NCBI GenBank assembly: GCA_046728175.1
Contig: JBKPEA010000005.1
Location: 12,795-76,794 of the forward strand
Origin: Thermodesulfobacteriota bacterium
GTDB lineage: Bacteria > Desulfobacterota > Binatia > Binatales > Binataceae
Direction: 5' to 3'
DNA: 64,000 nucleotides
The number at the start of each line of letters is the position of its first letter. Within the stretch, counting starts at the first letter, position 1. This document shows, piece by piece, positions 3,948 to 8,452 of the stretch. A model generated the notes under the pieces. That model did not search any database. It worked only from the letters and a program-made list of their open reading frames with translations, and was not told the origin of the DNA. Made by a program: the position numbers and the translations under genes.

Positions 3948-5234
3948 GTGAATGGATGGCGTCATTGGGGGGCAACGTTGGCCGCCCTCTTTCTGTTTTC
4001 ATGCGCGGGCGGCGAAATTGCCGAGCAGCCCAGCTACATCACCAATCAGCAGGGCGTGCGTGTGGAGGAACTAGCAATGACCACACCGCGGGCCGACCAG
4101 TCCGCAGCTGCACTACAAGACGGTCGTGTGCTGATTGCGGGGGGTACCACTAACGCGAACGTCGGCGGAGTTACTTCCACCGCCGAGATCTACGATCCCA
4201 ACGCGAAATCGTTCACCGCAACCGGGTCCATGACCGTGCCGCGGCAAGGTGCAACCGCGACGCTCCTGAATGATGGACGGGTCTTGCTCGCGGGCGGCGT
4301 ACAAAACATTGGATTTCGTGCCGAGCTATCCAGCGCTGAATTGTACGATCCTGTCGCAGGCACCTTCACCGCGACCGGCTCTATGCAAACGCCGCGCGAG
4401 GGCCACACCGCAACCCTCCTACGCGACGGCCGAGTACTGGTAGCCGGAGGAAGTGACAACGGAGTTCACACCCTCGATTCGGCGGAGATCTATGATCCCC
4501 GCTCGGGTGCCTGGCATTTCGCCGGCCACATGACGGTGCCGCGCGTGGCGCATATCGCCGTGCTGGTCCGGAGCGGCCAGGTGCTGATCGCGGGCGGAGG
4601 CCGCGGCGACATGCCGGGCGGTTACATCGTCTACCAAACCGCGGAAACCTATAGTCCGGAGCTTAAGCAATTCAACCGGGTGCCTGCTCGTATGAACAGT
4701 GATCGAGTCGGCGCCGGGGCTCTGCTGCTCAACGATGGGCGCGCGCTGATCGTGGGCGGCAAAAGCGGCAAGGTCCTCACCTCCTTCGGGCCGGGCACGC
4801 TCAACCTCAACTCCATGGCGCCTTTGAACACGGCTGAAACTTACGACCCCAAGTCGAGCAGCTTTGTATCGACCGGAAACCTGCAGGCTCCCCACTATCT
4901 TCCGCGCCTGGTCAAACTGCAGGATGGCAAGGTCCTGGTTACCAGTGGCTGGAAGATTCAGGGGCCGGTGGTCGTGGGGATGGCCGACGCCGAGGTCTTT
5001 CTGCCCGGCACCAATGGTTTCAGCCAGGTTGCGCCGATGCATGTGGCGCGGCTGCAGAATTCCTCCACCCTGCTCCCGGACGGCGACGTTCTGGTCGCAG
5101 GCGGAGTGGACCGGAACAGCCTGGTTACGGCCTCGGTCGAGTTTTACGATTCGAGGGCGCATCGTTTCGTCGTGCGCGGCGCGGGTTCAACTCCGCCGGG
5201 GAATCAGCCAAGCTCGATGGGTACCACGGAATGA
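3948..5234 (+). CDS. Kelch-repeat (beta-propeller) lipoprotein
   Basis: Signal peptide with lipobox LFSCAGG; six or more repeats of DGRVL(I/L)AGG...AE(I/L)YDP Kelch/galactose-oxidase-like motif. Confidence 0.7.
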   Translation: MNGWRHWGATLAALFLFSCAGGEIAEQPSYITNQQGVRVEELAMTTPRADQSAAALQDGRVLIAGGTTNANVGGVTSTAEIYDPNAKSFTATGSMTVPRQGATATLLNDGRVLLAGGVQNIGFRAELSSAELYDPVAGTFTATGSMQTPREGHTATLLRDGRVLVAGGSDNGVHTLDSAEIYDPRSGAWHFAGHMTVPRVAHIAVLVRSGQVLIAGGGRGDMPGGYIVYQTAETYSPELKQFNRVPARMNSDRVGAGALLLNDGRALIVGGKSGKVLTSFGPGTLNLNSMAPLNTAETYDPKSSSFVSTGNLQAPHYLPRLVKLQDGKVLVTSGWKIQGPVVVGMADAEVFLPGTNGFSQVAPMHVARLQNSSTLLPDGDVLVAGGVDRNSLVTASVEFYDSRAHRFVVRGAGSTPPGNQPSSMGTTE

Positions 5235-6844
5235 GGCGCGGTATGAGCGAACCATCCAAGCAATTGCCAGATTTTTCGCTGAATGATCTGTCCGGAACCG
5301 CACACACCTTCCCTGCGGGCCGCGCCGCGATGCTCTGTTTCGTCAAGGAAGATTGTCCGACCTGCGCCATTGCGATGCCGCTGATCGAGGGGTTTCATCG
5401 CGCGTTCGGTTCCAAGGTCGCGGTGCTCGCCATCGGTCAGGACGCCACTGGAAATCGCGTGCTCGCCCAGCGCCATTCGCTCACCTGCCCGCTGCTCGAC
5501 GATTCCGCTCTGCGCGTGTCGTTCGCCTACGGCTTCGATACCGTCCCGATGACGTTTTTCGCCGATGGGGCCGGCAATCAACTGCAGAGCTTCGCGGGTT
5601 TTGTGCGAAGCGACTGGCGATCGCTGGCAAGCGAGCTTGCGCAAATGACAGGATTGCCCGAGCCCGCGATCGATTGGGCGACCCTGCCGGAGTGGCGCGC
5701 GGGATGCGGTTCCAAAGCGGTCGAACCCGGAATTGCTGAACGGCTTGAAGCCGAGGCGCGCGGCGATCGTATGCAGGCCCGCCGCATCGAGTTGGGCGAA
5801 GGCGAGGACGTGTTCGAATTCATGTTCGAGCGCGGTCTTACCGACGGACTGCCGGTCGTCCCACCCACGCCCGAGCGGGTGGCGTGGATGCTTACCGGCA
5901 CCCGGCGTGATCCACGCGACATCGTCGCGACCGTGGCACCGAATCTGGCGCCCCTGACCGTCGAAAAGGTTGCCGTCAACGCGGTAATGGCGGGATGCCG
6001 TCCCGCTTATCTGCCGGTGGTGATCGCCGCGCTGGAAGCGGTCTGCACCGATACCTTCAATATCCACGGCGTGATGGCCACCACCTGGGGCGCCACCCCG
6101 GTGATTATTGTCAATGGACCAATTCGCCGGCGGCTCGGCATGAACATGGGAATCATGGCGCTCGGCTATGGCAGTCGACCCAACGCCACCATCGGCCGCG
6201 CGGTGAAACTGGTGCTGCGCAATGTGGGCGGCTCGCGTCCTGGTGATATCGAGCGCTCCGCGCTTGGAGCGATCGGCAAATTCACCACCTGCTTCGCGGA
6301 ATGGGAAGAGCGCAGTCCCTGGGAGCCGCTGCACGTCGAGCGCGGCTTCCTGAAGGACGAAAGCGTGGTAACGGTCTTCGGACTGGAAGCGGGCTCGCGG
6401 CAGATCGCGGATCAAACCTCGCGCACCGCTCGCGCGCTGGTAGGCTCGCTCGGCCTGGGACTGGAAGCGTGTTGGCATCCGAAGCAGCACGGTTCCGGTG
6501 AGGTGCTGCTGGTGATTTCACCGGAGCACGCCGACACCATCGCCCGCGACGAATGGAGCAAAGCGCAGGTGCGCAATCGAATTCAGGAAATCACGGCGCG
6601 CCCGCTGCGAGAGCTGCTCCCGGACGCGGAGAGCGGCGAAGGCATGCCCCTGAAGGCCTTTGGCCTCAAGGACCCGACGCCCGAGCAGCTCGATCAGAGA
6701 ATTCCGAAGTTTCGCTCCGCCGCGAATATCAATATTATCGTGGCGGGTGGTGAAGGCGGGAAGTTCTCCGCCGTGTTCGCCGGATGGGTTTCCGGACCGA
6801 TGGGCTCATCCAGCGTGAGCCGCCGAATCGAGGAGCTGCCATGA
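5231..6844 (+). CDS. Thioredoxin-fold (CPTC) domain fused to ~390-aa uncharacterized domain; putative partner of downstream selenoprotein
   Basis: N-terminal redoxin-like region with CPTC CxxC motif; start ATG overlaps Kelch stop (ATGA); stop overlaps next gene start (ATGA at 6841-6844). Confidence 0.6.
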   Translation: MRRGMSEPSKQLPDFSLNDLSGTAHTFPAGRAAMLCFVKEDCPTCAIAMPLIEGFHRAFGSKVAVLAIGQDATGNRVLAQRHSLTCPLLDDSALRVSFAYGFDTVPMTFFADGAGNQLQSFAGFVRSDWRSLASELAQMTGLPEPAIDWATLPEWRAGCGSKAVEPGIAERLEAEARGDRMQARRIELGEGEDVFEFMFERGLTDGLPVVPPTPERVAWMLTGTRRDPRDIVATVAPNLAPLTVEKVAVNAVMAGCRPAYLPVVIAALEAVCTDTFNIHGVMATTWGATPVIIVNGPIRRRLGMNMGIMALGYGSRPNATIGRAVKLVLRNVGGSRPGDIERSALGAIGKFTTCFAEWEERSPWEPLHVERGFLKDESVVTVFGLEAGSRQIADQTSRTARALVGSLGLGLEACWHPKQHGSGEVLLVISPEHADTIARDEWSKAQVRNRIQEITARPLRELLPDAESGEGMPLKAFGLKDPTPEQLDQRIPKFRSAANINIIVAGGEGGKFSAVFAGWVSGPMGSSSVSRRIEELP

Positions 6845-7362
6845 AGCAGGTAATCGTCGATCCCACCGATGAGCGCGTGCCGATACGGCGCACGCTCACT
6901 GAACGCTCCGGGCAGATCAGAGGCCGGGTCGCGATGCTTGATATCGCCAAGCCGCGCGGCGACGTGCTGATGAATCGCTTGGCCGAGCATCTCGGTAAGC
7001 GGCTGCCCGCGGTAGAAATCAAACGCTACCGCAAACCGACCTTTACCAAGCCGGCGCCGGAAGATCTGCGCCGCCGCATCGCGGAGGAAAGCGACTTCGT
7101 CATCGAAGCGCTCGCCGATTGAGGGTCGTGCACGACGTGCAGTGTGCACGACTCCGTATGGTTCGAAGTTAATCGCAAGCCCGCGGTGATGATCGCTTCC
7201 GACGTATTTGTCGATGCCGCCGAAAAGCAAGCGGCTGCACTCGGACTGCCCGAAGTGCGGCGGGTTTTCGTGCCCCATCCGATTCAGGATGCAACCGACG
7301 ACGAAATGCGTGCCAAGGCCGACGCGATCGTCGAGCGGGTAATCGACGCGCTGAAGAAGTGA
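6841..7362 (+). CDS. UGSC-type selenoprotein (in-frame UGA=Sec at 7120-7122; UxxCxxC motif), 173 aa if read through
   Basis: ORF track shows 6784..7122 ending at TGA and 7144..7362 in the same frame; codons are GAT TGA GGG TCG TGC ACG ACG TGC = D-U-G-S-C-T-T-C; downstream VPHPIQD resembles the glycine reductase protein B C-terminal region; stable hairpin begins 1 nt after the UGA. Confidence 0.7.
7123..7154 (+). promoter_or_regulatory. Putative bacterial SECIS stem-loop immediately 3' of in-frame UGA
   Basis: GGGTCGTGCAC / GTGCACGACTC form a 9-11 bp perfect stem (7125-7133 pairs with 7144-7152) with a 10-nt apical loop 12-21 nt downstream of the UGA. Confidence 0.5.
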
Positions 7363-7446: not shown

Positions 7447-8278
7447 CCCGGCGGCGTTCTTCCTGATGGTTAACCCCACCAGCCCAGCGGTCGGGTACTA
7501 TCTGTTGTCGGTGGCAGACGGAGTCCGCTTTTGCGGAAGTTCAAGCGGCGTTCCTGAAACATCAGGTGCTGTTCTTCCGTGACCAGGAGTTAAATCGAGA
7601 TCGGCAAAGAGCATTTGCGCGGCGCTTCGCCACCCTGAACATCCATCCCTTCGATCAGCCGCTCAAGGATGAAGGCTATCCGGAATTCGTCGTGTTCCAG
7701 AGGGACCAGCAATACCCGTATGTCGCGCAGGCGCGGCACGCTGACTTGACATGCTTACCTGAGCCGCCGCTGGATTCGGTGCTGCGATGCGTGGTCGCGC
7801 GCCACCGCTCGGCGGCGATACGATGTGGGTGAGCATGTGTGCGGCTTACGAGGCGCTCCCGGACAAGATGCAGCACCTGCTCTCCGGGCTAATCGCAATT
7901 CACGATACCAGGCGAGTGTTCGGTCTGTCGGCGGATATCGTCGCGAGGAGATCAGCGACAGCGAGGGAGACAGGCTGCGCAGCATGTCCGCGGAGCATCC
8001 GATGGTTCGCACCCATCCTCAAAGCCGTCGCAAAGGGCTGTTCGTCAACTGGCACTTCACCGCCTCGATCAAGGCATGAAATCCGCGGAGAGTGCGGCGC
8101 TGCTGAACTTTCTTTATCGTCACATCGAACTGCCAGATTTCATTTGCCGCTTCCGATGGCAAAGGGACTCGGTGGCGATGTGGGCAATCGCTGCACCCGG
8201 CATCGCGCGGTCGGCGACAATTGCTCCGCGGAACGTCGCCTCGAGCGCGTGACAATCAACGGCGACAAGCCGTTCTAG
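7447..8278 (+). pseudogene. TauD/TfdA family Fe(II)/2-oxoglutarate dioxygenase, multiply frameshifted
   Basis: TauD-like segments spread over three frames: AEVQAAFLKHQVLFFRDQEL, WHTD-like HADLTCLPEPPLDSVLRCVVA, PPLGGDTMWVSMCAAYEALPDKMQ, EHPMVRTHPQSRRKGLFVNWHFT, CTRHRAVGDNCSAERRLERVTINGDKP; at least four frame changes. Confidence 0.7.
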
Positions 8279-8452
8279 TTTTGCTGCTAGGAATTTCGCG
8301 TCGCGCGCCATCCGTGCGGACTCCTCCGCTTCTCGGCATAATCACGACACGGTAGCCAGTAGAAGGAACCCGCGAAGCGGTGCTTGGAGGCGGCGAAACC
8401 GGGCGGATGCTATTATTCGACTGGGCGCTCAGCTCTCCTTGACTCTTTCGGA

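Follow-up and report, generated by a model that had tools for sequence, protein, structure and literature searches.

We analysed a 64,000-nt stretch of DNA from a member of the Binataceae (NCBI GenBank assembly GCA_046728175.1, contig JBKPEA010000005.1, positions 12,795 to 76,794 of the forward strand; "the window" below always means this stretch at its full length). We find that a gene split in two by an in-frame UGA is, very probably, a true UGSC-family selenoprotein gene in which the UGA is decoded as selenocysteine (Sec). The product matches the family along its whole length, and the UGA is shared by all 162 homologous loci compared. A short hairpin downstream of the UGA, conserved and constrained at the level of the RNA, is probably the selenocysteine insertion sequence (SECIS); a longer hairpin that overlaps it is unlikely to be. 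The gene also lies directly downstream of a conserved partner gene, and a fusion of the UGSC domain with a domain of this partner exists.

A single UGSC-family gene interrupted by UGA

6841..7362, forward strand: complete UGSC-family selenoprotein gene, 173 codons and a stop, with Sec at codon 94
7120..7122, forward strand: in-frame UGA encoding the putative Sec (U94), which opens the U-G-S-C-T-T-C motif; TGA in 162 of 162 loci

The gene runs from an ATG at 6841–6843 to a TGA at 7360–7362, and the TGA at 7120–7122 is its sole in-frame interruption. A program-made list of open reading frames cuts it into two pieces, 6784..7122 and 7144..7362. The first-pass annotation of the window, a reading of the letters and this list without database searches, had placed both pieces in one frame, split by nothing other than the TGA, and sequence and translation confirm it. 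Across the UGA the product reads FVIEALAD, then the UGA and GSCTTCSVHDSVWFE, and further on VFVPHPIQD, with the motif ALAD-U-GSCTTC; it is identical to the product first proposed (EALAD-U-GSCTTCSVHD, with VPHPIQD downstream). The two 'hypothetical' reading frames of the window should be annotated as a single selenoprotein gene. Since the terminator of the gene is likewise TGA, local context is needed to tell the Sec UGA from the stop UGA. A crude screen of the window for other in-frame TGA candidates gave none that was convincing, which says little, since the same screen also missed the UGSC gene.

Family models were searched with the 173-residue protein carrying Cys in place of the internal stop. 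It matches NCBIfam NF041046, the equivalog 'UGSC family (seleno)protein', with 157.9 bits against a cut-off of 125 (profile positions 4–146 of 147), and Pfam PF24696, 'UGSC', with 156.2 bits against a cut-off of 25 (profile positions 2–171 of 172). Both models thus uphold the family name that the first-pass annotation had given to the gene, and the window gene is an ordinary member of a family already described. UGSC was described in the Global Ocean Sampling (GOS) selenoproteome by Zhang and Gladyshev in 2008, a study that counted 255 Sec forms of it against 21 Cys forms, placed it among the selenoprotein families of highest abundance, gave its motif as UxxC and reported its fusion to a domain named Unknown_1 (PMC2398784). 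According to a 2026 review the family is functionally uncharacterised still (PMC13188914).

Conservation of the UGA codon

Homologs were compared in 81 genome-derived and 81 metagenome-derived sequences (80 genome loci and 80 metagenome loci). The metagenome set represents a second subfamily with the motif GSCTSC; the scan that produced it was aimed at DNA of Cys forms and yielded 80 more Sec forms. The codon is TGA in all 162 homologous loci; neither another stop (TAA, TAG) nor a sense codon takes its place in any of them, and every locus continues in frame beyond it. Genome loci with this TGA come from Binatia, Chloroflexota, Gammaproteobacteria and Myxococcota, the closest relatives of the window protein being those of Candidatus Binataceae (87% identity). 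Matches found by tblastn in 80 genomes cover residues 1–173, crossing the TGA, and conservation of the amino acids persists after the UGA to the C terminus. An in-frame TGA of this kind is far beyond chance, in keeping with the view taken at the outset that the UGA is neither a frameshift nor an error.

Whether Cys-containing orthologs align at the Sec position was a question raised with the first-pass annotation. Rare homologs do have Cys there (P0004, P0182, P0185–P0188, P0190–P0194); the motif is CGSCTSC in 10 Cys homologs, and the pattern U/C-x-x-C-x-x-C is conserved. Most UGSC matches in a collection of 5.8 billion proteins are fragments. The N-terminal ones (95–112 residues) end exactly at ALAD and the 72-residue C-terminal ones begin just past the motif. 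A few full-length entries have W or G (some R) at the Sec position, and a minority have a genuine Cys; we read the W, G and R entries as artefacts of gene callers working with alternative genetic codes. Entries that carry W, G or R at this position or are mis-named fragments include P0001–P0003, P0183, P0184 and P0192, as well as P0081, P0100 and others. Many of the 72-residue C-terminal fragments have been named 'alkanesulfonate monooxygenase SsuD/...-like' by the Joint Genome Institute, which looks like a mis-transferred name. One metagenome contig (L126) carries two UGSC genes, at 5936 and 9166 and about 3.2 kb apart, each with the TGA and the conserved hairpin described below.

Two overlapping hairpins downstream of the UGA

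7135..7143, forward strand: three synonymously invariant codons (ACG for Thr, TGC for Cys, AGT for Ser), each the single codon used in 81 of 81 sequences
7136..7150, forward strand: family-wide SECIS-like hairpin, with arm 7136–7141 CGUGCA, loop 7142–7144 GUG and arm 7145–7150 UGCACG
7123..7154, forward strand: hairpin of the first-pass annotation, 11 bp (7123–7133 paired with 7144–7154), 10-nt loop, −18.6 kcal/mol

Constraint on the RNA is most readily appreciated from codon choice. In 81 distinct coding sequences, about 75 amino-acid columns are conserved and have degenerate codons; all of these vary synonymously except the three codons at 7135–7143, which are fixed. For comparison, another invariant Ser of the UGSC gene uses six codons. 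The three frozen codons provide the 7136–7150 hairpin with its 5′ arm and with the GU of its loop. Each frozen wobble base is explained by this hairpin, since G7137 and C7140 are stem bases and the choice of AGU for Ser gives A7141, which pairs with U7145; the same codon supplies the loop G and U. In the second subfamily Thr is replaced by Ser, encoded UCG, and the stem is preserved.

All six pairs of the hairpin form in 74 of 74 and in 91 of 91 distinct sequences. Pair 7137–7149 is G-C in 65 sequences, G-U in 19 and A-U in 7, and A-C never occurs; this covariation is matched in none of 500 shuffles. Indeed, the change from G to A at 7137 is always accompanied by a change from C to U at 7149, and only the 6-bp hairpin accounts for both. 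The published model of the bacterial SECIS has a stem of 4–16 bp, a loop of 3–9 nt with a G in its first two positions (usually GG or GU), 16–37 nt between UGA and loop, and a minimum free energy of −7.5 kcal/mol or lower (PMC13188914). The 6-bp hairpin begins 13 nt past the UGA and has its loop at 19 nt, and it fits the model throughout, with a folding energy of −7.4 kcal/mol that is borderline against −7.5.

Six Cys-form genes with DNA (five fetched loci and P0004) served as a control for the Sec forms. Four of the six have lost two of the six pairs, the Ser position now being Ala or a Ser with a different codon (GCA, GCG, GCC, TCA). P0188 (locus L167) retains the stem, with CGC as its loop. 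P0004 (locus L169), which has a TGT codon and is nearest to the Sec forms, retains the entire element including the GUG loop, and its sequence suggests a recent Sec-to-Cys conversion. Small as it is, this control points the same way as the Sec-form data.

The first-pass annotation had instead taken the longer hairpin for the SECIS. This hairpin of 9–11 bp with a 10-nt loop does exist in the window sequence, where its core, 7125–7133 with 7144–7152, is paired perfectly. The two hairpins are mutually exclusive because they have the 3′ arm UGCACG in common, and they have it in common because CGUGCA is present twice, once in Ser-Cys-Thr codons and once in Thr-Cys-Ser codons. In the lineage of the window the long hairpin (7123–7133/7144–7154) might be the functional SECIS and the 6-bp hairpin a by-product of the repeated CGTGCA. 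For the window sequence, the fold of lowest free energy is the long hairpin (−18.6 to −23.3 against −7.4 kcal/mol), the apical loop of that fold likewise begins GU, and several Binataceae relatives have an uninterrupted or nearly uninterrupted long hairpin; an alternative register would add an apical mini-stem of A7135–U7143 and C7136–G7142 with GUGCA as its loop. The stability is only mildly unusual taken alone, the 61-nt region folding at −23.3 kcal/mol (z = −2.17) and 5 of 200 shuffles being as stable. Across homologs, 79% of cells in the genome set and 68% in the mixed set are paired, but 54 of 74 and 66 of 91 distinct homologs have a broken central pair, the lower pairs 7126–7151 and 7127–7150 fail to form in 44 of 91 sequences, and covariation does not rise above that of shuffles. 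Moreover, the 10-nt loop and the UGA-to-loop spacing of 11 nt lie outside the published model, and the long hairpin does not explain the coupled changes at 7137 and 7149. We therefore consider it a lineage-specific structure that is unlikely to be the SECIS.

Several points count against the 6-bp hairpin in its turn. It is small, with an energy at the limit of the model, and in the window mRNA the competing 11-bp hairpin is far more stable (−18.6 against −7.4 kcal/mol). Five of its six pairs are invariant, so that covariation rests on one pair, and the control comprises only six Cys-form genes, two of which keep the stem. No Rfam family matches the hairpin; searches with the whole window at gathering thresholds and with 7050–7250 at E ≤ 10 gave only a chance match to a small nucleolar RNA. 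Weighed against these points, the frozen codons and the unbroken pairing make the hairpin at 7136–7150 the probable SECIS of the family.

Decoding of the UGA

No tRNA gene was found in the window, and E. coli SelA, SelB and SelD had no tblastn match, either in the window or in related loci totalling 1.72 Mb. The first-pass annotation had likewise seen no selA, selB, selD or tRNA-Sec gene; that these are not found within the 64 kb speaks against Sec decoding. Among the homologous loci, that of a Chloroflexota member (L043, Tepidiformaceae) has a tRNA-SeC gene with the anticodon TCA at 3955–4052, about 6 kb upstream of its UGSC gene; this locus is one of 13 that have no copy of the partner gene (see below) within 10 kb. 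A literature search for work linking Binatota to selenocysteine returned nothing useful.

The result of the window search would also be expected if the UGA were read through without Sec, as Trp, Cys or Gly, by a near-cognate or suppressor tRNA in an organism without Sec machinery, and the W or G at the Sec position of some database entries could be seen in the same light. We regard such readthrough as very improbable. The genetic code is standard, since the genes next to the UGSC gene, the upstream one included, and the UGSC gene itself terminate at TGA. Readthrough would leave a SECIS-like hairpin under synonymous-site constraint without a role, and the W and G entries are read, as above, as gene-calling artefacts; UGSC is, in addition, a recognised selenoprotein family (PMC2398784). 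That the UGA is a true stop, marking a pseudogene, two small genes or a sequencing or assembly error, is scarcely credible: gene callers do split the gene here and most database entries are fragments of 93–112 and 72 residues, but the same codon is TGA in 162 of 162 independent assemblies from several phyla, the half past the UGA continues the frame with conserved amino acids, full-length Cys homologs exist, and an identical downstream piece occurs on five independent metagenome contigs.

A conserved upstream partner

5231..6844, forward strand: partner gene, 537 amino acids; its TGA stop at 6842–6844 overlaps the UGSC ATG by 4 nt (ATGA)

The UGSC gene is preceded, directly and on the same strand, by a full-length homolog of the partner in 67 of the 80 genome loci and in 70 of the 80 metagenome loci. 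The metagenome loci without a partner are all contigs with less than 560 nt of upstream sequence. Against a general pairing stand 13 genome loci from Chloroflexota with no partner within 10 kb. Cys-form loci have the same arrangement, 4-nt overlap included, with partners that are 39–42% identical over about 500 residues.

Residues 10–128 of the partner form a thioredoxin/peroxiredoxin-like domain (AhpC/TSA match at residues 10–115). Residues 131–537 (window 5621–6841, about 400 amino acids) match no Pfam or NCBIfam family even at E ≤ 10, and ten sampled members of this C-terminal domain gave no family model for it either. In a library of 1.84 billion proteins, 5297 representative clusters match the domain at E ≤ 1e-3. 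Many of these are stand-alone proteins of about 350 residues; others, of about 710–740 residues, align to the query over two or three separate segments. Within the partner, C42-x-T-C45 and C159 do not vary at all, and variation at C256 and C354 is very slight. Further conserved motifs are G158-C159-G-S, D205-G-L-P-x-x-P-P-T and N-A-V-x-A-G-C256, along with many Gly, Asn and Arg residues. The single-sequence AlphaFold2 (AF2) model of the 537-residue protein, with a predicted local distance difference test (pLDDT) score of 33, was unusable.

The two proteins are also joined in single chains. P0405 (560 amino acids) consists of a UGSC domain fused to the C-terminal domain of the partner, and P0378 and P0417, judged by the position of the match, are probably UGSC fusions as well; in all three the motif has decayed, to CGNC, to CGAS or to a form without Cys. 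The P0405 fusion is probably the 'UGSC/Unknown_1' fusion of the GOS study. Taken together, the conserved adjacency, the translational coupling and the fusion speak for the UGSC protein and its partner acting jointly.

Predicted fold and a possible mechanism

We ran AF2 on the Cys homolog P0004, which is 51% identical to the window protein, with an alignment of 48 sequences. The resulting model is confident (pLDDT 88.5; predicted template modelling score 0.83). It has five β-α units, and the Sec/Cys residue follows immediately on the third strand, at the N terminus of helix three. The predicted fold of UGSC is flavodoxin-like, a five-fold β-α arrangement, and Sec at a helix N terminus with Cys at +3 and +6 is predicted to have the geometry of a redox-active selenol/thiol pair. 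A thioredoxin-like fold around the redox motif had been guessed in the GOS study (PMC2398784); the model does not have it. Searching the PDB by sequence with the UGSC protein gave no meaningful match.

Judging by conservation, the ribosome would read the UGA at 7120–7122 as Sec, and the hairpin at 7136–7150, 13 nt past it, would recruit SelB with Sec-tRNA(Sec). Because the long hairpin starts with the nucleotide next to the UGA, unwinding of its lower part, at least, would be required with the UGA in the A site. As adjacency and fusion suggest, the UGSC protein would act jointly with the protein encoded upstream, whose gene is translationally coupled to its own. The large uncharacterised domain of the partner may bind the substrate, the Sec94/Cys97(/Cys100) centre of the UGSC protein would supply the reductive chemistry, and the thioredoxin-like CxxC domain of the partner would re-reduce the resulting Se–S bond. 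We put this redox relay forward tentatively, as a possible rather than a probable mechanism. It has against it that no UGSC family member has been characterised (PMC13188914), so that both relay and substrate are speculative.

A broader proposal is somewhat more doubtful: UGSC and partner might constitute a widespread two-component selenoenzyme of soil and marine bacteria, in which UGSC, as a minimal relative of the core of GrdB and PrdB (selenoprotein B of glycine reductase and of D-proline reductase), would carry out reductive Se/S chemistry on a substrate bound by the partner. The large domain of the partner, about 350–400 residues in this reading and with over 5000 representative clusters, is catalytic-looking. 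Were the pair a reductase, this would account for the strong retention of Sec, the Sec forms far outnumbering the Cys forms. UGSC is among the most abundant selenoprotein families of aquatic metagenomes, with its function still to be found (PMC2398784, PMC13188914). Handles on that function are now offered by the putative SECIS conserved at 7136–7150, by a near-obligate partner with an unmodelled domain, and by a link to the selenoprotein B core that is weak but has statistical support.

Neighbouring genes

3948–5234, forward strand: Kelch-repeat beta-propeller protein, 428 amino acids, with a lipoprotein-like N terminus (...LFLFSCAGG...)
7540–8280, forward strand: remnant of a TauD/TfdA-family dioxygenase, next after the UGSC gene and broken across three or more reading frames

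With a 4-nt overlap between the stop of the Kelch gene and the start of the partner gene, three genes appear translationally coupled; the Kelch gene adjoins the module only in Binataceae relatives (17 of the 80 genome loci). The dioxygenase remnant comprises the open reading frames 7566..7832, then 7787..8278 or 7825..8079, and 8076..8252. At the corresponding position of a near-identical contig (L081) an 88-residue piece matches Pfam TauD, and the remnant looks like a frameshifted pseudogene.

Comparison with known systems

Set beside the UGSC family as described, the window gene shares the full-length match, the position of U-G-S-C and the excess of Sec over Cys forms. It also shares the association with, or fusion to, a second uncharacterised domain, seen already in the GOS study. 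Nothing essential is different; the window copy belongs to a soil lineage that is Binataceae-like, and gene callers cut it in two.

The candidate SECIS resembles that of E. coli fdhF in being a small hairpin shortly 3′ of the UGA, within the coding region, with a loop that starts G plus U. It differs in its 3-nt loop, the absence of a bulged U and the lack of a match to an Rfam model. The fdhF element starts 11 nt after the UGA, compared with 13 nt in the window, and its apical stem is resembled by the stem GUGCA/UGCAC of the window hairpin.

A likeness to GrdB and PrdB, proposed in the first-pass annotation from the motif and from the downstream VPHPIQD, has been borne out in part. GrdB does carry UxxCxxC (PMC13188914). 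The Pfam model GRDB (PF07355), however, has no match at E ≤ 10 to the window protein or to three homologs, which tells against the likeness. This is a weak negative, because the 347-position model ends at the Sec position; its matches to PrdB/GrdB-like sequences of the GOS study stop a few residues before Sec. We attribute this to a model built from sequences truncated at the UGA, which leaves the conserved post-Sec region unmodelled. The genomic context is unrelated as well: the neighbours of the window gene are the Kelch-repeat protein, the thioredoxin-fused partner, the TauD remnant, a glycosyltransferase and LpxD, and no grd or prd operon is found there.

With hhalign, a profile of 156 UGSC sequences was aligned to 28 GrdB/PrdB-like selenoproteins from the GOS supplementary dataset, of which three of four tested pass the GRDB cut-off. 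Sec falls on Sec in an alignment of 104 columns (probability 71.2%, P 3.7e-5, score 39.2), and the aligned segments comprise the post-Sec helix and strand (rGvPxVfVAS with GixTv) and VfVpHPIQD with PPRxl..fPlG. The reversed control scored 13.1, 100 column shuffles reached at most 23.3 and 100 shuffles of 8-column blocks at most 30.9, so that none of the 200 shuffled controls attained the observed score. As the block shuffles that keep the CxxC motif score lower, the similarity exceeds the motif alone. What these profiles suggest is a weak remote similarity, short of proof, and not membership of the family. A sequence search found no solved structure of the GrdB/PrdB family, and a literature search for a link between McrC/Mmp7 and GrdB/PrdB returned nothing useful.

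Both systems, then, have Sec followed by Cys at +3 (and at +6 in GrdB), placed after a hydrophobic β-strand and before a helix. They differ in size, UGSC having about 170 residues against about 240–440, and in company: UGSC is found without grd or prd neighbours or a pyruvoyl subunit, its partner being a thioredoxin-fused protein. GrdB and PrdB have been characterised in amino-acid-fermenting anaerobes, and the hosts of UGSC are mostly soil and ocean lineages. The relay proposed here for UGSC and its partner would find a loose analogy in GrdB and PrdB as subunits of their reductases.

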